This document shows positions 2,746 through 54,192 of a DNA stretch of 54,442 nt, piece after piece. Source of the stretch: Patescibacteria group bacterium. GTDB taxonomy: Bacteria > Patescibacteriota > Minisyncoccia > Phycocordibacterales > UBA5272. The stretch's first letter is position 1. Every line of letters starts with the position of its first letter. The notes under the pieces are model-generated. The model did not search any database and had not been told where the DNA came from. It saw only the letters and a list, made by a program, of their open reading frames with translations. The position numbers and the translations under genes were made by a program. The stretch spans positions 1 to 54,442 of the forward strand of contig JAUPVR010000003.1 of assembly GCA_030916895.1 (NCBI GenBank), read 5' to 3'.

Positions 2746-3549
2746 ATGATTACGGTTGTTGTACAGGGGGGGTTGGGTAACCAACTCTTTCAGTATGCTT
2801 ACGGGAGAGCGCTTATGGCGTCTGGTAAAGATGTCGTTTTTGATACGAGTTTTTTCGGGGTCAATCACAAGTATACAAAACGCCCATTTTTGCTAGAACA
2901 ATTTTTTCTTATTGATCACATACGAACCGCTACAACTTACCCAAAACAGAAATTTCTTACTCGTCTTATCAATAAAATAGATGTTGATAGAAGAGTGCGG
3001 TACATTCCCGCTAAGATGGGTGCTGATAACTATCTTGCGGATGGGTACTATACATCTGAGAAATATTTTTCACACATCAGAAATATAATTCTTGAAGAAG
3101 TTAAACTTAAAGAAGAGAGCTCTCTTTACAAGGAATGGCAAAGTCGAATTACAAGCGCTCGTAAACCTCTCATTGTTCACGCTCGGAGAACTGACTTTGT
3201 TGGTTCTGGGTTTGTTAATTTAGATGCTACATACTATGAAAAAGCACTTTCATATTTTGATGATGATTGCGAGATTTTTGCGTTCTCTGATGATATTACG
3301 TGGTTATCGGGCGCTATTAAACGACCATTCACTGCGGTAAGTGGAAATAATCTAAAAGATTACGAGGAGCTTATACTTATGTCTTTGGGGCAGAATTTTA
3401 TCATTGCCAACAGTACGTTTTCTTGGTGGGGAGCGTGGCTTTCACAAAGAGAGGGGAAAAAAGTAGTAGCGCCAAAAAAATGGTTCAAATCACCTTTTTG
3501 GTGGCGAGCAGAAAAAACAATCATTCCAAATTCTTGGACTGTAATTTAA
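2746..3549 (+). CDS. Alpha-1,2-fucosyltransferase (GT11)
   Basis: GT11 motifs [20 protein letters not shown] and [14 protein letters not shown]. Lies next to gmd and fcl. Confidence 0.92.
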
Positions 3550-4496
3550 ATTTCTCGAAGGGTACCCTCTTTCAACTCCTTTAAGAAGGCTTGGTATGTT
3601 CTATCAAGGCCTTGTTCTAGTTCAATGGTGTGTTGCCACCCAAGAGCGTGTAATTTATCACAATTTAGTAGTTTTCTTGGTGGACCATCCGGTTTTGTTG
3701 TATCAAGAATAATGTCCCCGGTGAAACCAACAACATTTTTAACAAGTTCAGCTAAATCTTTAATTGCAATATCTGTTCCTGTGCCAATGTTAACCCATCC
3801 TTTTTCATCATAGTTTTCCATAAGAAAGACACACGCATCAGCTAAATCATCAACGTGGAGGAACTCTCTCTTTGGGGTTCCTGTTCCCCATATGGTTACG
3901 GTAGGGAGGTTGTCTTCTTTTGCTTGGTGGAATTTCCTAATGAGAGCAGGAAGAACATGGGAATTTTGGAGATGGTAATTATCTCCTGATCCGTAGAGAT
4001 TGGTGGGCATTACGGAAATAAAGTTATCGCCATACTGGTCTCGGTACGCATCACACATTTTTAATCCGGCAATTTTTGCAATCGCGTACGGCTCATTTGT
4101 TGGCTCAAGAGGACTTGTAAGGAGCACATCTTCCGTCATTGGTTGCGGTGCCATTTTTGGATAAATACATGATGACCCCAAGAAGAGAAGTTTTTTTGCT
4201 TTAAAGACATGAGATGCGTGAATGATATTGGTTTCTATGGTTAGGTTTTCATAGATGAAATCTGCACGTTTGGTGTTATTTCCAACAATGCCACCAACTT
4301 TTGCTGCGGCAAGGAAAACATATTCCGGTTTATTTTTTTCAAAAAACTCCATGACACTTGCTTGGTTAAGGAGGTCAAGATTTTTACGTGGCGCGGTGAG
4401 GATATTACTGAATCCTTTTGATTTTAGGTTTCTTACAATTGCACCTCCAACCATTCCATTGTGTCCAGCAACAAAAATGAGAGAATCTTTTTTCAT
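3546..4496 (-). CDS. fcl: GDP-L-fucose synthase
   Basis: [38 protein letters not shown] and [15 protein letters not shown] motifs. Confidence 0.96.
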
Positions 4497-4505
4497 ATTG
4501 TTTAA

Positions 4506-5573
4506 TTATACTTTAAATCCACCCTCTAGAATATGTTTTTCTCGATTTGCTTGTTCTAAGTCATATTCCATCATGTCGTGGAGCATTTGCTGTACGGTTA
4601 TTTTTGGTTTCCAACCAAGAACTTTTTTTGCTTTATTTGGATTACCAAGAAGAGTTTCAACTTCTGCGGGGCGGTAATATTTTTCATCAACACGCACAAG
4701 CACTTTTCCGGTTTTTTTATCAACACCAGTTTCTTTTGATCCTTTTCCTTTCCAGACAATAGTGACGCCGACATGTTTAAAAGCCCATGTAACAAATTGA
4801 CGCACACTGTATTGCTTACCAGTTGCAATGACGAAATCGTCAGCCTTTTTATGTTGTAAGATAAGCCACATTGCCTCAACATAGTCACGCGCATCACCCC
4901 AGTCTCGTTTTGCGTCAAGGTTACCAAGGTAGAGCGTTTCTTCAAGTCCAACACTCATTCGCGCTACACCACGGGTTATTTTTCTTGTGACAAAGGTTTC
5001 CCCACGAAGTGGTCCCTCATGGTTAAACAAAATACCATTTGAAGCAAACATTCCATAACTTTCTCTATAGTTTTTTGTAATCCAGTAGCCGAATACTTTT
5101 GCAACACCATACGGGCTTCTTGGGTAAAACGGAGTTGTTTCTTTTTGTGGAGTTTCGACGACTTTACCAAACATTTCAGATGATGAAGCTTGGTAAAATC
5201 TTGTTTTCTTTTCAAGTCCGCAAATACGTATTGCTTCGAGTACACGAAGAACACCAAGAGCATCAACATCAGCTGTGTACTCTGGGTTTTCAAAAGAAAC
5301 TTTTACATGTGATTGTGCACCAAGGTTGTAGATCTCGTCTGGTTTAATGTTTTGAATTATTGTACACAAACTAGAGGTATCGGATAAGTCGCCAAAGTGG
5401 AGTTTGAAACGAGGGGAATTGTGGAGGTCTTCGTAGATGTCGTCGATGCGTGCCGTATTGAAAAGTGATGTACGTCTTTTGATGCCGTGAACCTCATACC
5501 CTTTCTTGAGTAAGAATTTTGCCAAATAGGCGCCATCTTGTCCGGTAACTCCTGTAATTAAAGCTTTTTTCAT
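4506..5573 (-). CDS. gmd: GDP-mannose 4,6-dehydratase
   Basis: [33 protein letters not shown] and [10 protein letters not shown]. Start moved to the ATG at 5573 (MKKALITG). Confidence 0.97.
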
Positions 5574-5623
5574 AGAATATGCAGTGTAGTATAGCATATG
5601 TATGCCTCACTTAGTGGTTTGGA

Positions 5624-6541
5624 TTATGCTAACAAATTCTGTATTCTCGCTGTCTTGTTTGTATGTATAAAGAATAAGTTGTCGTATAAGTAGCTCTCTT
5701 TTGGTGTGTGTTTTTTTAACAAACCTTCTAGTGTAATTTCATAAACTTCGTAGTCTTTGTTAAGTAAAAGGTTAATTGATTGTGTACAATTTTCTTTCCA
5801 CTCTTCTCCTCCACCAACTTCAATTGTCACACACGGCTGTACTTCTGTTAGGATGGTATCCATTGCCTTAAGGATGAGATGTTCAGCTCCTTCTGCGTCA
5901 ATTTTTATAAGGTCAGGTAGTAGGTTTTTATTTTTACAAAAATCATCAAGTGCGATTGTTTTTACCACAATTCGCTCGGCATCATCCCTGAAGGAAATGT
6001 CTTTATCTGTTCTTTTTTTGAAAGAATTGAAGGCGCTGTATTTTGGGCCGTAGTCAAAAAATTCAATATCAATCTCTTTATCTAAAACAGCATTGTTATA
6101 AATTTGTACATTTTTTTTGTGGGCAGTGTTTTCTTTGAGACTTTGAAATGTTCTTGGTGTTGGTTCAAAGCTCACAACTTTCCCGGTGTCGCCAACAAGT
6201 GAGCTTGCAAGCATGGAGTAGTAGCCAACATGAGCACCAATATCAAAAAAAGTATCGCCTTCTTGTAAAAAGTTTATAAAAAAATTACTAAGATTTGCTT
6301 CAAAGAAGCCGTAGTAGTAAAGCATCCCGCCTTCAGGAAGGTAGTACGACATGTTTTCTCCCCAGAGAGTTTTTCTTGTCACTTTGTATGGTTTGATATA
6401 GGCAAGATACTGTCGTATGAAGTAGGGGATTGTATGAAAAGGTGACCTTAAAACCCTTTTTACTCTACTTCCTTGTAGTTTGTAAAGTTCGTACCGAGCA
6501 AGTATTTTGTTTTTTAATTCTTCCTTGTTTTGGTTTTTCAT
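5624..6541 (-). CDS. FkbM family methyltransferase
   Basis: FFDIGAHVGYYS, VVSFEP and LIKIDAEGAE motifs. Confidence 0.9.
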   Translation of the reverse strand: MKNQNKEELKNKILARYELYKLQGSRVKRVLRSPFHTIPYFIRQYLAYIKPYKVTRKTLWGENMSYYLPEGGMLYYYGFFEANLSNFFINFLQEGDTFFDIGAHVGYYSMLASSLVGDTGKVVSFEPTPRTFQSLKENTAHKKNVQIYNNAVLDKEIDIEFFDYGPKYSAFNSFKKRTDKDISFRDDAERIVVKTIALDDFCKNKNLLPDLIKIDAEGAEHLILKAMDTILTEVQPCVTIEVGGGEEWKENCTQSINLLLNKDYEVYEITLEGLLKKHTPKESYLYDNLFFIHTNKTARIQNLLA

Positions 6542-6646
6542 ACGAAGGCAATAATGTGATTTTGATTATACCATAGCTTAATTTTAGTTTTCACCTTTAA
6601 AATTAAAGATTTTCTTGTTTCCAACGGAGATGGTATTATTCAAAGT

Positions 6647-7645
6647 ATGACATCTAAGAAGAGAACAATTTTGGTAACTGGCGGTGCTGGCTATATTGGT
6701 TCCCATATTGTTTCCGCTTTGCGTAGTAGTGGCGGATATAGAATAGAAATCGTTGATAATTTTCGCGAATCTCGTAGTAATGTTATTCAAGACGAAAGTA
6801 TCGTGTATCACGAAGTGGATATTAGAAACAAGGAAAAGCTCATGGAGGTCTTTGAGTTGACGAAACCCGATTTAGTTTTTCATTTTGCCGCACTTGCTAG
6901 TGTCCCAGATTCCATGGAAAATCCTGCTGAGTACTATGAGAACAATGTTGTTGGAGGATTAAATCTCCTTGAGTGTATGCGTGTTTGTGGAGTGAAAAAA
7001 ATAGTTTTCTCTTCATCGGCATCGACATACGGCGAACCCCTAACTGAGGAGATAACCGAAGAACATCCGCAAGTTCCCACAAACACCTACGGGTATACAA
7101 AACTCATTTTTGAAAATATGCTGAAAGATTATAATCGATCATATGGTTTTTCGTCTATCTCGCTTCGATACTTTTGCGCATCTGGTTGTGATGTTTCTGC
7201 GGGTATTGGTGAGTACCACACACCAGAAACACACGCCATACCATCAATTGTGGAAACTCTTCTTGGTCGACGAAAGGAATTTTCTGTGTACGGTAATGAT
7301 TTTCCAACACCTGACGGTACCGGTGTTAGGGACTACATCCATGTGATGGATTTGGCAGAAGCACATACGCTTGCTATGAATAAACTCTTTGAAGAAAATC
7401 TAATGTGTAAGCAATATAATCTTGGTATTAATAAAGGGTTTTCAGTTATGGAGCTCATCAAGTCAGCAGAAGAGATTTCTGGTAAAAAACTTTCTTATAG
7501 CATTAAGGATAGAAGATTAGGTGATCCATCAAGATTAATCGCCAATTCAGATAAAGCACAAAAAGAACTTGGGTGGACACCAAAACATCTTGATGTTAAA
7601 GATATGATAGCCTCTACATATGAGTTCTTCTCTTCAAAGAAATGA
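6647..7645 (+). CDS. galE: UDP-glucose 4-epimerase
   Basis: ILVTGGAGYIGSH, HFAALASV, FSSSASTYG, YGYTK and DGTGVRDYIHVMDLA. Confidence 0.92.
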   Translation: MTSKKRTILVTGGAGYIGSHIVSALRSSGGYRIEIVDNFRESRSNVIQDESIVYHEVDIRNKEKLMEVFELTKPDLVFHFAALASVPDSMENPAEYYENNVVGGLNLLECMRVCGVKKIVFSSSASTYGEPLTEEITEEHPQVPTNTYGYTKLIFENMLKDYNRSYGFSSISLRYFCASGCDVSAGIGEYHTPETHAIPSIVETLLGRRKEFSVYGNDFPTPDGTGVRDYIHVMDLAEAHTLAMNKLFEENLMCKQYNLGINKGFSVMELIKSAEEISGKKLSYSIKDRRLGDPSRLIANSDKAQKELGWTPKHLDVKDMIASTYEFFSSKK

Positions 7646-8376
7646 AAGCTCTAATTCTTGCCGCAGGTCTTGGCACAAGACTTCGTCCGTTGACGGAAAA
7701 AACACCAAAACAACTTTTACCTGTAAACGGTAAACCACCACTCCTTTACCACCTTGAAAGCCTTTCCTTGTTTGGTGTAGATGGTGTTTTGATAAATACC
7801 CACCACCTCTCTGAAAAGATAGACTCCTTTGTTAAAGGTGAACAAACAGTTTTTCCATCGATGACAATTACGACCACTTTCGAGCCCGAACTTCTAGGAA
7901 GCGCTGGGACAATGTTTGCAAATAAGACTTTCTTTGATGATTCTGAAGATTTTCTGGTTGTTTACGGTGATAATCTGACAGATATCAATTACAAGGAATT
8001 TTTTGATGAGCACAAGAAAAAAGGGGGGCTTGTTACCATTGCTTGCTATTACGAGCATCATCCAGAAAGCAAGGGAATCATTAATTTCAATGATTCTGGA
8101 AAAATAACGAGTTTTTTGGAGAAACCAAAAAAAGAACAGGTTACAAGTAACTGGGCAAATGCGGGGATGTATTTTATAAACAAGAAAATATTTGAATATA
8201 TCAATAATTTTGAGCAAACTCCTCTTGATTTTGGATACCACTTATTTCCTTTTTTGTTAGAGAAAGGTGAAGATATGTATATATATCAAATGTCTGAAAC
8301 AGTTCTCGACATTGGCACCTTAGAAAGTTATAATGAGGCTCAAAGTCTCGCAAAAAAACTATTTAAAAATGATTAA
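7642..8376 (+). CDS. hddC: Nucleotidyltransferase, probably D-glycero-D-manno-heptose 1-phosphate guanylyltransferase
   Basis: ALILAAGLGTRLRPLT, LGSAG and VYGD motifs. The specific function is inferred from the neighbouring hddA/gmhA/gmhB genes. Confidence 0.75.
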   Translation: MKALILAAGLGTRLRPLTEKTPKQLLPVNGKPPLLYHLESLSLFGVDGVLINTHHLSEKIDSFVKGEQTVFPSMTITTTFEPELLGSAGTMFANKTFFDDSEDFLVVYGDNLTDINYKEFFDEHKKKGGLVTIACYYEHHPESKGIINFNDSGKITSFLEKPKKEQVTSNWANAGMYFINKKIFEYINNFEQTPLDFGYHLFPFLLEKGEDMYIYQMSETVLDIGTLESYNEAQSLAKKLFKND

Positions 8377-9130
8377 AGAAAACAAATTTGGCGGTGAACG
8401 ACTAGAGAGCAAGAGTGTATTGTCCAGGAACAATCTACTAGAACACCTTGTGCGATATGAAATGCTTCCAGGGAACAAAGACCACACTGTTTTAGATGTT
8501 GGTTGTGGTGCAGGACATGGTAGTAACCTGCTTTCGAAAAAATATAAAAAAGTCTATGGAGTGGATATTTCTCCGGAGGCAATAGGGTACGCAAAAAATA
8601 ACTGGGGTTCTGATAATATAGAGTTTGTGGTTGGCAGTGCAATGGACATACCTTTTCCAGACAGCACCTTTGACGCGATTTCTGCGTTTGAAGTTTTCGA
8701 ACATCTAACCGATTGGAGAAAGTTTCTTTCTGAGTTACGGAGAGTTTTAAAACCAGAAGGGGTTGTCTATATTTCAACACCAAATAAGACACTCTATTCT
8801 CCGGGGACTGAAAAGCCGATTAATCCTCATCATATTTTTGAAATGACCATCCCTGAATTTGAGAGTGCGGTCAAAGAATTTTTCTTGCTTAAGAATATGT
8901 ATGGGCAGAGAACCCCAGTTTATAATGATCACATTATTTGGAGCGTTGTTAACCCTGTCTTGTTTACATTTAAAAAAATTATTCCTTACAAATGGAACAA
9001 TACACTCAAGCTGAAAATTATTAATTGGATAAAACCAGAGCTTTCCATCGAGGATATTGTTATTAAGAGTGATAAAGAGTGGGTTAAGCGGTCGCGTTTC
9101 GTTATTGCAGAGTGTCAAAATAACAAGTAA
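8369..9130 (+). CDS. Class I SAM-dependent methyltransferase
   Basis: VLDVGCGAGHG, FDAISAFEVFEH and RRVLKPEG motifs. Likely start is the ATG at 8369, overlapping the upstream stop. Confidence 0.9.
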   Translation: MIKENKFGGERLESKSVLSRNNLLEHLVRYEMLPGNKDHTVLDVGCGAGHGSNLLSKKYKKVYGVDISPEAIGYAKNNWGSDNIEFVVGSAMDIPFPDSTFDAISAFEVFEHLTDWRKFLSELRRVLKPEGVVYISTPNKTLYSPGTEKPINPHHIFEMTIPEFESAVKEFFLLKNMYGQRTPVYNDHIIWSVVNPVLFTFKKIIPYKWNNTLKLKIINWIKPELSIEDIVIKSDKEWVKRSRFVIAECQNNK

Positions 9131-9139
9131 GATAGGGAT

Positions 9140-10138
9140 ATGATTATTACGAGAGCACCATTACGCATAAGTTTTGTTGGAGGGGGGACAGATATTAAGG
9201 AATTTTACTCTCGATATCCAGGTAGGGTTATTTCAACAACAATTGATAAGTTTGTCTATATTGTTAGCAATCAGAATACATTCTCTGGTAAATACATTCT
9301 TAAGTACTTTCAAACTGAAATTGCTAATCATCCGAGTGAGTTTAAACATGACAGATTTAAAGAAGCTCTTCTCCACATAGGAATAGATAATGGTATTGAA
9401 ATAGCTTCTTTTGCAGACCTTCCTTCCAAAACTGGACTAGGTTCGTCATCTTCATTTTCTGTTGCCCTTATGAAAGCTCTTTATGCAAATCAGGGAAAAA
9501 AGATTAGTAAAGAACAAGCTGCTCAATCCGCGTGTGAATTGGAAATAGATATTTTGAAAGAACCAATTGGAAAGCAGGACCAGTATGCTTCTGCGTATGG
9601 GGGATTAAATGTGATTACATTTAATACCGACGGAACAGTCGATGTCGAGCCAATCTTTATGGATTTTAAATTTAAATCAAAATTTGAAAACCATATGATG
9701 CTTTTTTTCACCGGCATGACGAGATCGGCAGGTTCTGTTTTGGGTGAACAGAAGAAGAAAATTGATAACAATTTTGAAACCTACAAAAAAATGTCAGATT
9801 CAGTTCTTGAATTTAAGGACAAACTTCTTAATGAAGACATTAAGGGGATGGCAGAGATGCTCCATGAAGGGTGGCAAAGAAAGAAAACTCTCGCGTCTTC
9901 AATAACTAACAGTGAAACTGATGTGCTCTATGAAAAGGCAATAAAAAATGGAGCGTGGGGTGGAAAAATTTTAGGTGCGGGTGGAGGCGGTTGTTTGCTG
10001 TTTATTGCTCCACCTGAAAAACAACAAAAAATACAGGAAGCTCTTGATGCTGAGGCAAAAAAAGTAGGACTTGTTGATTTTAAGAGAATTCATTTTGGGC
10101 TCACATCTTCTGGGGTTGATATATTATTTAATTCATAA
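9140..10138 (+). CDS. hddA: GHMP kinase, D-glycero-alpha-D-manno-heptose 7-phosphate kinase
   Basis: RAPLRISFVGGGTD, GLGSSSSF, GKQDQYASAYGG and GKILGAGGGG. Confidence 0.88.
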   Translation: MIITRAPLRISFVGGGTDIKEFYSRYPGRVISTTIDKFVYIVSNQNTFSGKYILKYFQTEIANHPSEFKHDRFKEALLHIGIDNGIEIASFADLPSKTGLGSSSSFSVALMKALYANQGKKISKEQAAQSACELEIDILKEPIGKQDQYASAYGGLNVITFNTDGTVDVEPIFMDFKFKSKFENHMMLFFTGMTRSAGSVLGEQKKKIDNNFETYKKMSDSVLEFKDKLLNEDIKGMAEMLHEGWQRKKTLASSITNSETDVLYEKAIKNGAWGGKILGAGGGGCLLFIAPPEKQQKIQEALDAEAKKVGLVDFKRIHFGLTSSGVDILFNS

Positions 10139-10147
10139 TCAAAAACG

Positions 10148-10759
10148 ATGAAAACATACATTGAAAAATTCGCAGATGATATATCGTTTCAAATGAAGAA
10201 TCTTCCAGCAGAGGAAATTGCTAAAGCGACACACATCATTCAGTCTGTTTATGAAAGGGATGGCAGAATTTATGTTTTTGGTAATGGTGGGTCACTTGCG
10301 CTTGCGACACACTGGGTGAGTGATTTCAATAAGACTGTGTTTAGTCATAACCTTGATGCAAATATTAAGCGTTTTCAGGCAATACGCCTTCCATCAACTG
10401 AGTCTGAAATTACAGCATGGGCAAATGATGTGGGTTTCGATATGATATTTGCGGGGCCCCTTAAGAATTACCTCCAAGAAACCGATTGTTTAATTGCGAT
10501 AAGTAGTTCCGGTAATTCGCCGAACATTATTAAAGCGGTTGAACTTGCAAAATCACACCATGTACCCGTGATAGGTATTTCTGGTTTTGATGGAGGAAAG
10601 TTAAACGAACTTGCTGATGCAAAAATTGTTATTAAAACCGAGAAAGGGGCGTATGCCATCGTAGAGAGTGTACATGGGGCAATTCTTCACCTTTTTACAA
10701 GTTATTTTCAAGATTACTTCGACCACATTGTAAAGCGTGATGAAAAGCACAAAAAGTAA
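10148..10759 (+). CDS. gmhA: Sedoheptulose 7-phosphate isomerase (SIS domain)
   Basis: FGNGGS, ITAWAND and AISSSGNSPNI motifs. Confidence 0.9.
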   Translation: MKTYIEKFADDISFQMKNLPAEEIAKATHIIQSVYERDGRIYVFGNGGSLALATHWVSDFNKTVFSHNLDANIKRFQAIRLPSTESEITAWANDVGFDMIFAGPLKNYLQETDCLIAISSSGNSPNIIKAVELAKSHHVPVIGISGFDGGKLNELADAKIVIKTEKGAYAIVESVHGAILHLFTSYFQDYFDHIVKRDEKHKK

Positions 10760-11234
10760 AAAGGTTGTTTTTTTAGATAGAGATGGAGTTATTAACAAGA
10801 AGGCGGACAAACATTGCTATATAACCAAAGAGAAGGATTTTGTTTTTAATGATGGAATTTTTAATGTTTGCTTACATTTGCAAAATAATGGTTTTGAATT
10901 TATCGTGATAACTAATCAGCGAGGTATTGCCAGGGGATTCTACACTGAAACAGATCTTGAAAAAATACACAACATAATGAAAAGGGGGTTTTTAGAAAAA
11001 GGGATTAATCTTCTTGATATCTTTTATTGTCCGCATGAAGAGGGGGTTTGCAATTGTAGAAAGCCAAAACCTGGGATGCTCGAGATGTCGTTTGAGAAGT
11101 ACTGCTTTGATAAAGGTGGAGCAATACTTATTAGCGATACAATGGAAGATGTTAGTATGGGGGAGAGTTTTGGGATAGGTAAAAATATTTATGTTACTTC
11201 AGACAAGCCAGAAGAGGCTCTGTCTTTCGTATGA
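10737..11234 (+). CDS. gmhB: D-glycero-D-manno-heptose 1,7-bisphosphate phosphatase (HAD)
   Basis: FLDRDGVIN, ITNQRGIARG and YCPH...CNCRKPKPGM. Confidence 0.92.
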   Translation: MMKSTKSKKVVFLDRDGVINKKADKHCYITKEKDFVFNDGIFNVCLHLQNNGFEFIVITNQRGIARGFYTETDLEKIHNIMKRGFLEKGINLLDIFYCPHEEGVCNCRKPKPGMLEMSFEKYCFDKGGAILISDTMEDVSMGESFGIGKNIYVTSDKPEEALSFV

Positions 11235-16383: not shown

Positions 16384-17229
16384 TTATTTGATTAATTTAT
16401 CTTCGCGCATTTTTTCTACAATTTTTGCAATGCCATCAGGCAATTCAGTTTTTGGTTTCCAGTACGATAAGATGAAATCATCTGGTTCATTTCGCTTGTT
16501 CTTTTGAACTTCATCTTTTGAGTTTGTCTTTGGTATGACGACCGAACCTGGAAAATGTGAAGCGATGATATCTGCAACTTCAAGAACAGTGTTCCATGTG
16601 AAGTTAGTGATATGAAGTTCTTTATCTCGTGGAACATCTTCATATTTTTCCGCAAGCGCAACGAGTGCTTCACAACAGTCATCCGCGTATAAGAATTGTC
16701 TCTCTTCGGTACCATCGGTTAATAAATCTATTGTTCCGGTTTTATCGGCTTTTATAATAAGATCGGTGATGACATGTGATTTTTCCATGTCATGTTCAAC
16801 ACCGTAAACATTCCAAAATTTTACAACAAGACCTCCTAAGATTTGTGTATATGATTCGCCAACAGACTTCATTCTCCCGTAACTTGAATAAGACATGTTT
16901 GCCATTTGACTTGATGCAAAAATAAACGGTTTGTTGTATTTATGGATTAGGTCAAAGGTGGTATTAATAATTTTTGTATTATTTGATATGAAATCAAATG
17001 TTTGTTGGTACATTTGTAGGTATCGTGATCCACCAACATCAAAGGCCAAGAAGAAGACGAGATCAGATTGGGAGATGAGTGTTTCTAGGAGCGGATTATT
17101 GTAAACACGGAGATCTTGTTCGTAACTGTTTACAATATCAAATTCTAAAACATCGTCTCCTCGTTTTTTGAGGTATTCCGTAAGAGCTGAACCAATTTGA
17201 CCTTCTGACCCCAAAACGAGATATTTCAT
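16384..17229 (-). CDS. NAD-dependent epimerase/dehydratase (extended SDR)
   Basis: LVLGSEGQIG Rossmann motif, YxxxK (YGRMK) and RQFLYADD. Confidence 0.85.
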   Translation of the reverse strand: MKYLVLGSEGQIGSALTEYLKKRGDDVLEFDIVNSYEQDLRVYNNPLLETLISQSDLVFFLAFDVGGSRYLQMYQQTFDFISNNTKIINTTFDLIHKYNKPFIFASSQMANMSYSSYGRMKSVGESYTQILGGLVVKFWNVYGVEHDMEKSHVITDLIIKADKTGTIDLLTDGTEERQFLYADDCCEALVALAEKYEDVPRDKELHITNFTWNTVLEVADIIASHFPGSVVIPKTNSKDEVQKNKRNEPDDFILSYWKPKTELPDGIAKIVEKMREDKLIK

Positions 17230-17317: not shown

Positions 17318-18067
17318 TTAATTTTTGATGAACCAAAAGCAACCACAGCCATAGTTTTGTTTATTTGCCATTTCTTCGGTTGCGTTGTACTGCATGCCTT
17401 TAGAGAGAGCGTCATCAGGGATAAGAGAAAATTCTTTTATTGAAAAATCAGGGAACATTTCTTTGACCATGTTGTAGGAGTAAATTCTGTGTGCATTGAA
17501 TTCTATTTTTGGTTTTCCAATTGGGACAACAAAAAGTAAGTTACCACCTTTTTTGGTTACTCTAGAAAGTTCTGCAACTGCTTTTAGATCTCCATTTGGG
17601 TCTAGTGGATCGCCATACCTACCAAGACCAACATGCTCAACGGTGTGCATACAAGAAAGGGAGTCGATAGAGTTTGATGGGAATTGTAATTTGAGAAGAT
17701 CTGCGTGTTCAGACACAAGATTTGAAAGATTTAATTTTGCTGGTCGGTAATCATAGAATTTTACTGGAACAAACGCAGAAACGATAGAAGAAAAATATAA
17801 ACTCGATGAAATATCAATATGTAGTTGTGCGTTAATCTCTTTTACTTTTCGAGCGGCCCAGGCGGTATGGTAAACGTAATGGGTGTCGAACCTTGTATAG
17901 GGAATGTTTTCAAACAGGCATGGCATGATGTCTAGGGGTGAGACTTTGAACCGTTTGGATTTATTTTTTAAAAAAAAGACAAAAAAAGATCTAGCAATAA
18001 AAGGAAACAATAAATACCCCTTTATTTTGTAGATAGTTCTTTTTATTGTTCTTAAAAATTCAAACAT
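17318..18067 (-). CDS. DUF268-type methyltransferase-like protein
   Basis: FYDYRP and DSLSCMHTVEHVGLGRYGDPLDP motifs. An alternative start exists at 18097. Confidence 0.75.
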   Translation of the reverse strand: MFEFLRTIKRTIYKIKGYLLFPFIARSFFVFFLKNKSKRFKVSPLDIMPCLFENIPYTRFDTHYVYHTAWAARKVKEINAQLHIDISSSLYFSSIVSAFVPVKFYDYRPAKLNLSNLVSEHADLLKLQFPSNSIDSLSCMHTVEHVGLGRYGDPLDPNGDLKAVAELSRVTKKGGNLLFVVPIGKPKIEFNAHRIYSYNMVKEMFPDFSIKEFSLIPDDALSKGMQYNATEEMANKQNYGCGCFWFIKN

Positions 18068-18243
18068 ACAGATGTGTACAAAAAGTCTACCATACAAAAT
18101 AAAAGTTTCTCTTCAGATTTTTTTTGAGAAATATTTACTCTTTTCATAATTTGTGGTAGTGTCCAAAGTAGAGCTGAATCAACCTTGATTTTTTAGGTTT
18201 TCGGCATCATTGCCAGCATTATTCACTCAAAGGAGAAACAAAC

Positions 18244-19257
18244 ATGCAACAAAAAACTGCGCTCGTTCTCGGTGCCGGCGGATTCATTGGGAGCCACATG
18301 GTTTCCCGCCTGAAGAAGGAGGGGTACTGGGTTCGTGGCATCGACCTCAAGTATCCCGAGTTTTCGCCGACAACGGCGGATAACTTTCAGGTCTTTGACC
18401 TGCGGAACCATAACGGACTGAACCAGATGATGTCGATCGGCGGTCGCGAGACCTTCGACGAGATCTACCAGTTCGCGGCCGACATGGGTGGTGCCGGTTT
18501 CGTTTTTTCCGGCGAGAATGATGCGGACATCATGCACAATTCCGCACTCATCAACCTAAACGTCCTCGAGGTCCAGCTTCGGCTGAACAAGACCCTCGGG
18601 GTGAACAAGACCAAGATCTTCTACAGCAGTTCGGCGTGCATGTACCCGGAGTACAACCAGACCGATCCGGACAATCCGAACTGCCGGGAAGATTCCGCTT
18701 ATCCGGCAAATCCTGACAGCGAGTACGGCTGGGAGAAGCTCTTCTCGGAGCACCTGTACCTGGCGTACAACCGCAACTACGGCATTCCGGTTGCGATTGC
18801 GCGCTACCACAACATCTTCGGCCCCGAAGGGACCTGGATGGGGGGTCGCGAGAAGGCACCTGCCGCGATGTGCCGCAAGGTGGCGGAAGCGTCTTCGGGG
18901 GACACGATCGAGGTTTGGGGGGACGGCAAGCAGACGCGATCCTTCCTGTACATCGACGAGTGTCTCGAGGCGACGCGTCGCTTGGTGATGTCGCAAGACT
19001 TTTTCGGTCCGGTGAACATCGGGTCGGAAGAGATGGTGACCATCAATGGCCTGGTTGACATGGTGGCGGACATCGCCGGCAAGGAGATCAAGGTCAAGCA
19101 CATCGACGGCCCGCTTGGCGTTCGCGGTCGCAACTCGGACAACTCCCTTTACCGGGAGAACATCGGGTGGGCGGTTTCCGCTCCGCTTCGGGATGGCATC
19201 GAAAAGACCTACTCCTGGGTGAGCGAGCAGGTTCGCTTGGCCAAGGACAGCAATTAA
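18244..19257 (+). CDS. GDP-mannose 3,5-epimerase-like extended SDR, GC-rich
   Basis: LGAGGFIGSH, QFAADMGGAGF, YSSSACMYP, YGWEK and TWMGGREKAPAAMCRK match the GME signature. SD AAGGAG at 18230-18235. Confidence 0.88.
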   Translation: MQQKTALVLGAGGFIGSHMVSRLKKEGYWVRGIDLKYPEFSPTTADNFQVFDLRNHNGLNQMMSIGGRETFDEIYQFAADMGGAGFVFSGENDADIMHNSALINLNVLEVQLRLNKTLGVNKTKIFYSSSACMYPEYNQTDPDNPNCREDSAYPANPDSEYGWEKLFSEHLYLAYNRNYGIPVAIARYHNIFGPEGTWMGGREKAPAAMCRKVAEASSGDTIEVWGDGKQTRSFLYIDECLEATRRLVMSQDFFGPVNIGSEEMVTINGLVDMVADIAGKEIKVKHIDGPLGVRGRNSDNSLYRENIGWAVSAPLRDGIEKTYSWVSEQVRLAKDSN

Positions 19258-19284
19258 TTTTGGGCAGAGAGATCTGCCCTGTGC

Positions 19285-19332
19285 GGGGCATCCTCGAACT
19301 TCTACAGTTCTTGGGTGCTCTTTCTTTTTTAT
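19285..19332 (+). terminator. Probable intrinsic terminator after the GC-rich epimerase
   Basis: An interrupted stem GGGCATCC..GAAC/GTTC..GGGTGCTC followed by a T-rich tract. A second hairpin, GGGCAGA-GAGA-TCTGCCC, lies just upstream. Confidence 0.5.
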
Positions 19333-20099
19333 TTCACAAACGCGCGGATAAGTCGAAGTATTATGTAGGCGAGAAATGTTGGGTGAACATATAGTCCACG
19401 AGAAGTACCCTCTTTAAAGAGTGACCATAAAGTTTTTAATTGTTCGACAGTATTTCTTTTTCGGTAGTTTAGTCCGTTATCTGTATAACCATCAGTGAGC
19501 GTTGCGTTCCAATTTGTGTAAAAGAATCCTGTGGTTGTACTTAATTCATAAAAGAAGAGCCACTCGTCACCTTGGGGGACTGTTTTTGGGAAATAAGTGT
19601 TTTTAATATTATTTTTTCGTATACAGTGAGTTGCGTCGCCTTTGTATTTTTTTGTTAATAAAAAATGAAGAGCATAGTTTTTGTTACTGCCCTCTTTATT
19701 AATTTTTGTAAGTGATTGTCCGTCTTTCGTTGCACGGTTTGCAACAAACCAAGTTTCTTGTTTGTGGGCATTAATAAGTGATGCAAACATACTAAGTGCG
19801 CCAGGAGCAAGATAATCATCGTCGTCAAGAAAAATAATCCAAGAGTTTTCTTTTGCATGGTCAAGTGCACGGTTGCGAGAAAAGTTTACACCTTGGTTTT
19901 TTTCGTTGGTAAGGTAAACGATATGAGGGTTGTTGGTGTACTTTTCTTCAAATGATGTGTATGAGTCATCAGATGGTGAATCATGTACGATAATACATGT
20001 GGCATGTTCGTAGCTTTGTGAAAGCACAGAATCAACTGCACGCTGTACCTTGCCGGCTCGTTTATAGGTTGGGATGATAATAAAGAAATGTGGTTCCAT
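19329..20099 (-). CDS. Glycosyltransferase family 2
   Basis: IIIPTYKR and the DxD-like motif IFLDDDD. Confidence 0.88.
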   Translation of the reverse strand: MEPHFFIIIPTYKRAGKVQRAVDSVLSQSYEHATCIIVHDSPSDDSYTSFEEKYTNNPHIVYLTNEKNQGVNFSRNRALDHAKENSWIIFLDDDDYLAPGALSMFASLINAHKQETWFVANRATKDGQSLTKINKEGSNKNYALHFLLTKKYKGDATHCIRKNNIKNTYFPKTVPQGDEWLFFYELSTTTGFFYTNWNATLTDGYTDNGLNYRKRNTVEQLKTLWSLFKEGTSRGLYVHPTFLAYIILRLIRAFVK

Positions 20100-20103
20100 G
20101 GTT

Positions 20104-20820
20104 TTATGAAAGGCGAAGGATTTTTTTGATCACCTTTTTTATTCCAAGGTGGGTGAGAACTTTTTTTAGTGCGTGGTAAAGAGGGAATTTATTTGCAAGG
20201 CGTAAGAGTGGATTGCCCCATGAATAATTCCACAAATGAACTCCGTATGTTTCTGGTGAGAGTGTTTCCTTGCTGTAGGTTCCAATAGTTTCTTGTGTGT
20301 ATGGATAGAAAGCTACAGGTGGGCAAACTTTTACATTCTGCAAATCTTTTTTCATTGTTTCGTAGACGCCCGTGATAAGGAGAGGGATTGTTGGTGGTGT
20401 ACCATCCATGGTGTCGTAGCGTCGTCTACATTCTTCAATGTAAGGATGATTTGGAGTTGCACCAACCATACCCGCACTTATGATACCTTTCTTTTCTTCA
20501 CCCAAGAGAAGGTTTGTTTCAAGGAGAGGAGAAATATCTTTCAAGATTTCCATGTCGGTATCGAGATAGATGCCTCCGTATTTAGAAAGAATTTCTAAAC
20601 GAGCATAGTCTGAAACGAAAGCCCATTTTTTTTCTTTGTACATACGCGCCGTAAACGGATGGGCATGCACATCGTAGTTCGACTCATTCCATTCTTTGAT
20701 GGAAAAATCTGGCAGGTGTTTTGCCCAACTTGTAATGCAAGATTCGATGAGGGGTGGTTTTGGTTTCCCTCCGAACCAGCAAAAGTGAATGATTTTCGGT
20801 ATCGTCGCTTCAGGTTCCAT
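20104..20820 (-). CDS. Glycosyltransferase family 32 (DxD sugar-binding)
   Basis: IPKIIHFCWFGG and AFVSDYARL...GGIYLDTD. Confidence 0.9.
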   Translation of the reverse strand: MEPEATIPKIIHFCWFGGKPKPPLIESCITSWAKHLPDFSIKEWNESNYDVHAHPFTARMYKEKKWAFVSDYARLEILSKYGGIYLDTDMEILKDISPLLETNLLLGEEKKGIISAGMVGATPNHPYIEECRRRYDTMDGTPPTIPLLITGVYETMKKDLQNVKVCPPVAFYPYTQETIGTYSKETLSPETYGVHLWNYSWGNPLLRLANKFPLYHALKKVLTHLGIKKVIKKILRLS

Positions 20821-53010: not shown

Positions 53011-53877
53011 ATGCCTCCGTTTCAACAACAACCACAAACACCAGTGAGTAGTTCTCCTTCTCACGAAGAAGATTATGAAAAAGTCGTTGACGATTTAATT
53101 AAGTTTTTACCAAGCGAATTACAAGAACGCTGGAGGAGTAGTTACTACGATGCAGAACATCCAGAACATGTTGTTTCAGAGTTGCGACAATTCATTGAAA
53201 AAAGGAAGAAGGTTGCACTCGATGCTGTTGAACTTTCTCCTGACTTACCTGAAGAGTTAAGAGAAGAAGTGGTAAGAGTTGTTGATAGTATCCGTCAAGG
53301 ATTTGGGAACACGAGTTATTTTTTAGGAAATGGTGCAACAGCTGAAGTTTATATACTTCCGCTTGCCCCACATATATGTACGAAGTACATTACGAGTCAA
53401 GAAAAGTACAATGAAGGCAATCATATACGCAAAGAGTTTGAGATACTTTCTGAGTTACGCCAGATTACCGTTGGAAATGTTCGTGTGCCAAAACCTGTTT
53501 TTGTGCGTGTCCATCCTAGCGAGGGACACTCGTACGGTATGGAAAGAGTAAATGGAGAAAGCCTTTCAGTTATTTTAGAGAAACCTTCAAACCATCAAGA
53601 GCTCATCGCTGTTGCAAAAAGTGTGGACCGGGAAAACGTAATTCAATCAGTTCTTGGTTTTGTGAAAGAGATGCACAAAAAGAAGATTATCCATGGCGAC
53701 CTTTTTCAGAGAAATGTAATGATTGATAGAGAGGGGAATTTTTTTGTTATCGATTTTGGTAAAGCATCACATGAAGAAATAGGGGAAGACAAGGAGGATG
53801 CTATGAGGAGGGATATCTCAACGGTCGAAAATGAATTACGCCTATTTTTTAAGGGTATTGACAATATAAGTATTTAA
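53011..53877 (+). CDS. Protein-kinase-like fold protein (Ser/Thr or RIO/Kdo-like)
   Basis: Gly-rich loop LGNGATAEVY, Lys in ICTKY, catalytic loop HGDLFQRNVMI and IDFG. Confidence 0.85.
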   Translation: MPPFQQQPQTPVSSSPSHEEDYEKVVDDLIKFLPSELQERWRSSYYDAEHPEHVVSELRQFIEKRKKVALDAVELSPDLPEELREEVVRVVDSIRQGFGNTSYFLGNGATAEVYILPLAPHICTKYITSQEKYNEGNHIRKEFEILSELRQITVGNVRVPKPVFVRVHPSEGHSYGMERVNGESLSVILEKPSNHQELIAVAKSVDRENVIQSVLGFVKEMHKKKIIHGDLFQRNVMIDREGNFFVIDFGKASHEEIGEDKEDAMRRDISTVENELRLFFKGIDNISI

Positions 53878-53886
53878 TAGTATAAT
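53858..53886 (+). promoter_or_regulatory. Consensus sigma70 promoter
   Basis: Exact TTGACA (53858-53863), 17-nt spacer and TATAAT (53881-53886). Confidence 0.85.
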
Positions 53887-53933
53887 CAAAGTATAGGCAC
53901 ATTTAACTAATCTTGACCTGAGGTAAAAATACA

Positions 53934-54134
53934 ATGATCTTGGCAAAATACATGATTGACAACGGACGGGAGATGATCGCAAAGCAAGCGGTCATTGCGC
54001 TTCCGGCTCAGATTCCGCAGACGCCGGGATTCTTCATTGCCGAACCTTCGGACAAGACCATTCAAGCCTTCGGTGGTTTTTCCGAGAAAGGCAAGACCTA
54101 CAAGATCGGTACCAAGAAGACCGATACCAAGTGA
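53934..54134 (+). CDS. Small GC-rich hypothetical protein (66 aa)
   Basis: Has its own consensus promoter, SD GAGGT at 53920-53924, C/G-ending codon bias and a downstream terminator. Confidence 0.75.
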   Translation: MILAKYMIDNGREMIAKQAVIALPAQIPQTPGFFIAEPSDKTIQAFGGFSEKGKTYKIGTKKTDTK

Positions 54135-54160
54135 TTCCGAAAGATCAAGATGAACCTTCC

Positions 54161-54192
54161 CCCGCAGTGACCCTGCGGGTTTCCTTTTTTTT
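54161..54192 (+). terminator. Intrinsic terminator of the small ORF
   Basis: CCCGCAG-TGACC-CTGCGGG followed by a T tract. Confidence 0.75.

Follow-up and report, generated by a model that had tools for sequence, protein, structure and literature searches.

How did a single gene with the codon usage of a GC-rich genome come to lie in the AT-rich surface-glycan locus of an ultra-small bacterium, and from where? The stretch of DNA analysed here (the window, 54,442 nt) is one entire contig (C20; JAUPVR010000003.1) of a metagenome-assembled genome of a Patescibacteria group bacterium (GCA_030916895.1; 660 kb in 37 contigs, 41.5% GC, 93% complete). The gene in question, at positions 18244–19257 on the + strand, encodes a 337-amino-acid homologue of GDP-mannose 3,5-epimerase (GME, also called GM35E). 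We think it likely that this gene is a xenologous single-gene cassette that reached a mosaic glycan locus in a lineage of Patescibacteria by recombination. An original prediction made from the DNA letters alone had pointed in the same direction, and several of its claims are taken up below where the results bear on them.

Composition and structure of the cassette

When GC content was measured in 300-nt windows, it was about 0.56–0.62 inside a tract of about 18200–19320 and 0.28–0.40 on both sides of it. The gene itself has a GC content of 0.582 and a GC content at third codon positions (GC3) of 0.787, the third highest of the genome, where about 675 crude open reading frames (ORFs) give a mean of 0.369 with a standard deviation of 0.087 (z about 4.8). 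The region also ranks among the GC-richest when the whole genome is cut into 600-nt windows (mean 0.414, standard deviation 0.037). As a control for the gene family, we compared the GC of the gene with that of its flanks in 255 other GME loci, where the mean excess was +0.042 (standard deviation 0.040), as against +0.206 here (z 4.1). The abrupt jump in GC that had been described from the sequence is thus borne out.

The codon usage of the gene is that of a GC-rich genome. CTG accounts for 35% of its leucine codons and for 4% genome-wide, the corresponding figures are 69% and 17% for CCG and 94% and 34% for AAG, and CTG, CCG, CGG, GCG, AAG and GAG are all strongly elevated. The codon and GC3 check that had been proposed along with the original prediction therefore gave the skew expected of a GC-rich background. 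Codons ending in G and codons ending in C are both raised, and the pattern differs from that of native codon selection. Translational selection as the source of high GC3 was also considered and rejected, because the other high-GC3 genes of the genome are ORFans or phage-like genes and not ribosomal proteins, and because G-ending codons are raised too. Despite the high GC3, GC at the first and second codon positions is below expectation (z −2.1), which suggests a Patescibacteria-type protein that has spent time in a GC-rich background. In both composition and codon usage the gene deviates from its host genome, in the way by which horizontal acquisition is commonly recognised.

The GC-rich tract carries signals of its own. 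A Shine-Dalgarno (SD)-like AAGGAG lies at 18230–18235 (+), 8 nt before the ATG, in a genome where an SD core precedes only about 8% of 668 ORFs. Downstream of the gene, the predicted fold of the 71-nt spacer contains two hairpins, with a T-run after them (−33.5 kcal/mol, z −4.76). Hairpin 1, found by folding, occupies 19262–19279 (+) and reads GGGCAGA-GAGA-TCTGCCC, and hairpin 2 with its T-run occupies 19285–19331 (+), reads TTCTTTTTT, resembles an intrinsic terminator and abuts the stop codon of the convergent glycosyltransferase gene. The gene is transcribed in the direction opposite to both neighbours, a DUF268-type methyltransferase on the left (17318–18067, − strand; Pfam DUF268 and Methyltransf_11) and a family-2 glycosyltransferase on the right (GT2c, 19329–20099, − strand; Pfam). 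The strand arrangement, the rarity of the SD motif and the presence of dedicated hairpins and a terminator, all noted in the original prediction, are confirmed. Between the divergent starts of the DUF268 gene and the GME lies an AT-rich segment (18068–18195, 28% GC) that would carry the promoters of both genes, and a scan of its + strand for the sigma-70 consensus detected no GME promoter.

Empty and occupied sites in close relatives

A very close relative is represented by a Logan contig from run SRR14932673 (L160). At the corresponding place its locus reads GT2c, a 29-nt spacer and DUF268, with no GME, and the DUF268 gene stands directly downstream of the glycosyltransferase gene. Since the two flanks lie 29 nt apart where the GME is absent, positions 18068–19328 of the window (1,261 bp, GC 0.541) represent a clean indel, as seen by blastn and by manual comparison of the junctions. 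The synteny comparison with relatives lacking the gene thus identified an empty site, and presence and absence of the gene are polymorphic at one site among close relatives.

The same comparison shows how the surrounding locus has been put together. The Wzy N-terminus of L160 is 99% identical to that of the window, with a synonymous divergence (dS) of 0.08, while DUF268 is 95% identical in amino acids, CapsGT 88% and GT2c 87%, and dS in the glycan genes CapsGT, GT2c, DUF268 and GT2b is 0.47–0.75. The SDR genes (short-chain dehydrogenase/reductase) of the two loci are only 36% identical and the GT2a genes 37%. The jump in dS together with these low identities indicates that the locus is a mosaic with breakpoints at gene boundaries, and it looks like serotype switching in a Patescibacteria glycan locus. 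The recombination breakpoint with respect to L160 is sharp, falling between the Wzy N-terminus (20916–21607) and the genes at 17318–20820.

A second relative, a contig from activated sludge (L161), is more distant, with flanks of 82–84% DNA identity (GT2c 81.5%, CapsGT 83.8%) and a flank dS of 0.64–0.86. It carries a GME at the same junction, with a GC3 of 0.82–0.87 and 88% DNA identity to the GME of the window. Its 3′ spacer and hairpins are homologous to those of the window, including an element corresponding to hairpin 2 and its T-run, and hairpin 1 is kept with a G-C to G-T change. At the position matching 18994 of the window, the L161 gene has a 1-nt deletion that shifts the reading frame; an assembly error may be the reason, or decay into a pseudogene. 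Because the same GC-rich gene stands at the same junction in so diverged a relative, the cassette is older than the split between the two lineages. The acquisition had been predicted to be recent, and this does not hold. The original prediction had further held that GC-biased orthologues inherited vertically across the lineage would speak against it, and L161 supplies a part of that picture.

Distribution and phylogeny

Throughout the genus a TsaD-Wzy/TPR-CapsGT-GT2c backbone is conserved and the region beyond GT2c is variable. GT2c itself was found in 30 of the 36 other genomes of the genus, at 38–52% identity. The GME is sporadic, occurring in 7 of the 37 genomes of the genus and in 7 of 400 genomes sampled from other parts of the phylum, and tends to occur together with DUF268: both were present in 7 genomes, the GME only in 2, DUF268 only in 5 and neither in 47 (Fisher p = 5.5e-5). 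It is often also found alongside a 281-amino-acid extended SDR of unassigned specificity, which lies at 16384–17229 (− strand) in the window and accompanies the GME in several related loci at 68–77% identity. The idea of a self-contained unit therefore stands in a structural sense, as a single compositionally alien gene with its own signals, and fails in a functional one, since the gene travels with DUF268.

Trees were built with FastTree (159 sequences) and with IQ-TREE under LG+C20 (72 sequences). Both place the GME of the window in a clade of about 18–23 sequences (clade A, support 96–97), in which all members with a name or genomic context are Patescibacteria, including Paceibacteria, Saccharibacteria, the same-genus genome G026 and a metagenome-assembled genome labelled Gracilibacteria that has the same synteny. 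The GMEs of the window and of L161 are sisters (support 99), and the pair is basal within clade A by FastTree and nested by IQ-TREE (LG+C20). The GMEs of GC-rich taxa, among them Alphaproteobacteria and Actinomycetes, fall elsewhere in the tree. The suggestion that the gene had come from a GC-rich host or neighbour is not supported by this placement, which is apart from the GC-rich phyla. In five further genomes of the genus, the GME at this locus belongs to another, unrelated lineage (B), so the gene has entered this locus more than once. The tree thus gives a divided picture of xenology, with two unrelated GME lineages in one genus and yet a copy in the window that stays inside the Patescibacteria clade.

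We propose the following course of events. The cassette comprises the AT-rich leader, the SD motif, the GME ORF and the two-hairpin terminator. A GC-rich genome would have been home to the ORF over a long stretch of its evolution. Given the phylogeny, the source would not be one of the classical GC-rich phyla but a carrier of a Patescibacteria-type GME, be it a GC-rich relative that has escaped sampling or an element of such a relative. Illegitimate recombination, or recombination at gene boundaries, would then have set the ORF in reverse orientation at the GT2/DUF268 junction of this often recombining locus, without dedicated machinery. This event is older than the split of the present population from the L161 lineage, and the GME-less version of the locus seen in L160 is still in circulation among very close relatives.

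Two other cases with a GC-enriched GME deserve mention. In L015/L146 (from genome G026) and L106, a GC-enriched two-gene islet stands in flanks of 32% GC, with a GME of GC 0.52 and GC3 0.57 and an unannotated 243-amino-acid gene of GC 0.45; it looks like a milder parallel of the cassette described here. L040 and L051, from a metagenome-assembled genome labelled Deltaproteobacteria (Gx485_bin195), have two GMEs of GC 0.47–0.49 in flanks of 0.29–0.32, and L051 is the only one of the 255 control loci with a GC excess over its flanks as large as that of the window.

Alternative explanations

Several observations weigh against the acquisition of a foreign cassette. No transposase or integrase was found among the ORFs of positions 1–24.6 kb, as the original prediction had noted for the transposase. 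With regard to an integron cassette, no integrase was seen among these ORFs, and the 3′ hairpins end in a T-run and resemble a terminator. No convincing target-site duplication is present either, again in line with what had been noted, the sole candidate being an imperfect 12-nt direct repeat that flanks the GC-rich 1,124 bp, with a left copy CTTGATTTTTTA (18184–18195, +) and a right copy CTTTCTTTTTTA (19320–19331) matching it at 10 of 12 bases; it may be due to chance, as it is T-rich and two more similar copies occur nearby. A donor was sought among 5.8 billion proteins (with the full-length protein, then with a C-terminal fragment), GTDB genomes, JGI metagenome contigs, IMG/VR and plasmids, and none was found in these collections. 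Leaving aside the partial copy in L161, no full-length protein was more than 77% identical, and this best match came from AT-rich Patescibacteria. The phylogeny that had been proposed as a way to name the donor did not name one. Outside the window/L161 pair, the clade-A members sampled are all AT-rich or show no more than a moderate GC enrichment. The GC3 of L161 at least equals that of the window despite a flank dS of about 0.7, which is hard to reconcile with neutral amelioration. As to function, no dedicated mannose-1-phosphate guanylyltransferase (ManC) could be identified with confidence. Finally, in the loci L105, L158 and L159 a clade-A GME is convergent to GT2c, exactly as in the window, so the gene may be a positional orthologue in place of a new insertion, and L160 a deletion.

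This last point leads to the alternative that survives best, although we consider it rather unlikely. In these loci a GME would always have stood convergent to GT2c, and the resident AT-rich copy would have been overwritten by a GC-rich xenologue in the lineage of the window and L161, through gene conversion or homologous recombination, and L160 would later have undergone a clean deletion. Besides the convergent arrangement in L105, L158 and L159, the SD motif AAGGAGAAAC is common to the window and L158. The flanks of the window are also closer to those of L160 than to those of L161, and with the window and L161 occupied and L160 empty, a loss in L160 is the simplest explanation of the distribution. 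However, the untranslated ends on both sides belong to the GC-rich tract, whose limits fall precisely on the gene boundaries of the neighbours, and the upstream region of the window's GME shows no homology to those of related GMEs beyond the SD motif and the first codons. Moreover, DUF268 is placed differently here than in L105, L158 and L159, so that the junction itself is not ancestral. We favour an insertion of the cassette over a deletion in L160.

The high GC could alternatively have been made or kept in place: selection could act on the mRNA or at synonymous sites, or a recombination anchor could be subject to GC-biased gene conversion. In each of the nine clade-A loci that were compared, the GME has a GC3 between 0.03 and 0.45 above that of its neighbours, and in two lineages with a flank dS of about 0.7 its GC3 is 0.80–0.87. 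Under a simple two-state model, about half of the GC3 excess should have been lost in each lineage at this dS, and both copies are at or above 0.80. Synonymous third-position differences between the window and L161 are also fewer in the GME (about 18%) than in the flanks (26–32%). However, only 148 codons of the GME could be compared and the L161 copy carries the 1-nt frameshift; with flanks that recombine and are a poor dS clock, dating by dS is unreliable and the argument from the persistence of GC3 is suggestive at most. We know of no reported effect of biased gene conversion in bacteria near a GC3 excess of 0.45, and the excess seen here is far beyond the effects reported. The codon choice, moreover, mirrors a general GC-rich mutational bias, and the family-wide excess across the 255 loci is only +0.04 GC. 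An origin of the high GC in place is accordingly quite improbable to us.

The leader raises a related question. An SD-like motif precedes the clade-A GME in all eight loci checked (the window, L103–L106 and L157–L159), in the forms AGGAG, GGGAG or AAGGA in the seven related loci, where such a motif stands before no more than 3 of about 60 neighbouring genes. Judged from these sequences, the GME leader appears to be gene-specific and conserved before this gene alone in an SD-poor lineage, which would also suit an origin of the high GC in place. The 16S rRNA gene of the genome (contig C30, 7248–8904; locus L163), a full match to the Rfam model, reads GGAUUAAUUCAAUG and not GGAUCACCUCCUUA at its predicted 3′ end; there it lacks the canonical anti-SD (CCUCC) tail, and a CAUCAUCCUUUUU stretch follows 15 nt further downstream. 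We see it as unlikely, if slightly less so than an origin in place, that the GC-rich coding sequence and the SD-like leader are actively maintained and are not decaying leftovers. If they were maintained, one possible cause would be a hitherto unrecognised, gene-specific selection on synonymous sites and the leader, for example through a special mode of translation initiation or of mRNA stability; another would be repeated re-seeding from a hidden GC-rich reservoir.

Delivery by a virus of Patescibacteria, which would have dropped the cassette as a moron-like unit, is very unlikely. At least 598 stretches related to the GME occur on viral contigs of IMG/VR, with a best identity of 72%, and the viral GMEs form the sister clade of the Patescibacteria clade, so that the GME is apparently a widespread auxiliary gene of phages. 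The IMG/VR homologues L246–L325 are 68–72% identical to the protein of the window. The possession of a terminator and an SD motif would suit a moron, and the other GC-rich islets of the genome, described below, are partly phage-like (Mu Gam-like, ParB-like). However, all 80 viral copies examined are AT-rich, with a GC3 of 0.21–0.50, no viral GME falls inside clade A, and no phage genes were found near the locus.

The last alternative, in which a GC-rich fragment of another organism was spliced into the contig by assembly or binning, would be conceivable for a metagenome-assembled genome of 37 contigs but is effectively refuted. In independent Logan and ENA assemblies, contigs assembled separately from five runs (SRR24011136, 139, 140, 146 and 147) encode the identical protein, match the window at 99.99–100% identity along as much as 12.5 kb and run through both junctions. 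The right-hand (3′) junction is found again in L162, a 99.7%-identical strain variant that comes from a sixth run in this series, and in L161, an 84%-identical contig of an unrelated activated-sludge project. The cassette boundaries, moreover, coincide with gene ends.

Identity and predicted function of the epimerase

By sequence, the protein is a GDP-mannose 3,5-epimerase, as had been predicted. It belongs to the NAD-dependent epimerase/dehydratase family (Pfam Epimerase, residues 6–259, E 2e-38), has the glycine-rich NAD-binding motif of extended SDRs (GAGGFIGSH) at residues 10–18 and, among solved structures, matches GMEs at E values of 1e-89 to 4e-87, with the next family at 1e-23. The NCBIfam models for Fcl, RmlB and GalE all remain far under their cut-offs. 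Compared with the Arabidopsis thaliana GME (PDB 2c59/2c54; E 1e-89 for 2c59 over the full length), the protein is likewise an extended SDR with conserved catalytic residues, whereas its N- and C-termini are shorter than those of plant GMEs (337 against 377 amino acids).

The characterised bacterial GM35E of Methylacidiphilum fumariolicum (PMC6678494, PMC8787198) is likewise an extended SDR with an S/Y/K triad and a Cys/Lys pair. In the GM35E literature the fingerprint consists of S143, C145, Y174, K178, N203, K217, R243 and R306 (PMC8787198). S143, Y174 and K178 form the catalytic triad, C145 and K217 are the acid-base pair, with a lysine in place of the histidine of GMER, R306 acidifies the cysteine and R243 contacts the diphosphate (PMC8787198). 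All eight residues are conserved in the alignment: S130, Y161 and K165 correspond to the triad, C132 and K204 to the acid-base pair, and R296, R232 and N190 to R306, R243 and N203. The protein of the window differs from the characterised GMEs in its setting, a Patescibacteria surface-glycan locus beside a GDP-heptose pathway.

The enzyme is predicted to convert GDP-D-mannose to GDP-L-galactose/L-gulose. On the same contig, a glycan island at 3546–11234 codes for the GDP-L-fucose route (Gmd and Fcl, each scoring above its NCBIfam cut-off), as well as for GalE and weaker hddC-, hddA- and gmhA-like matches that are under curated cut-offs, so GDP-mannose-type substrates are probably at hand. The island further contains an FkbM methyltransferase and a gene run of hddC-like, methyltransferase, hddA-like, gmhA and probable gmhB genes, which corresponds to the route to GDP-D-glycero-D-manno-heptose. 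This nucleotide sugar is probably present in the host and is possibly an alternative substrate of the epimerase. Together with the DUF268 methyltransferase, the GME would give the surface glycan a (methylated) L-sugar.

Other GC-rich islets of the genome

The cassette is not the only GC-rich patch of this genome. Other islets of 55–64% GC, with GC3 up to 0.87, were found at C1 6076–7975, C14 2901–4525 and 8126–9600, C10 22726–23550, C35 34226–35350, C4 1–1125, C8 1–1025, C13 35528–36109 and C11 7736–8758. They consist mostly of ORFans (membrane proteins or proteins rich in Ala, Gly, Pro and Thr), with a Mu Gam-like and a ParB-like gene, and they give the impression of a stock of foreign genes, part of them derived from phages. 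Ribosomal and transfer RNA genes were ruled out as the source of these patches by Rfam. Near the end of the window, at 53858–54192, a second self-contained unit that is GC-richer than its surroundings was seen by eye only, with an exact TTGACA-N17-TATAAT promoter, a GAGGT motif, a 66-amino-acid ORF and a hairpin-plus-T terminator.

Comparison with known systems and implications

O-antigen and capsule loci of Enterobacteriaceae and streptococci are known for the shuffling of gene-sized modules and for atypical GC. The locus described here resembles them in its conserved backbone flanks (TsaD-Wzy-CapsGT-GT2c), its variable interior with breakpoints at gene boundaries, its presence/absence polymorphism among close relatives, its compositional deviation and its lack of mobility genes. 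A classical O-antigen or capsule locus is usually AT-poorer than the whole genome; here, in contrast, one gene is much GC-richer than both locus and genome and lies antisense inside an operon. With phage morons and other single-gene units, the cassette shares a translation signal and a terminator of its own, a deviant composition and a position between two genes of an operon. Unlike them, it has no prophage context and no consensus promoter was detected for it, and the viral GMEs are AT-rich and fall outside its clade.

A sugar gene of atypical GC in a mosaic polysaccharide locus is a known, textbook kind of event, and the general interest of the present case is therefore modest. Only the lineage, the persistence of the GC3 and the conservation of an SD motif in an SD-poor lineage are new. 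With its empty site and its diverged occupied site, the locus documents one-gene-at-a-time remodelling of the surface glycan in ultra-small episymbiotic bacteria, without recognisable mobile-element machinery. A foreign GC3 of about 0.8 that persists in a genome of GC3 0.37 is a puzzle for models of amelioration. For the biology of these bacteria, the results point to GME and DUF268 as a module for an L-sugar (or L-heptose) and its methylation, which would make it a variable trait of the cell surface.

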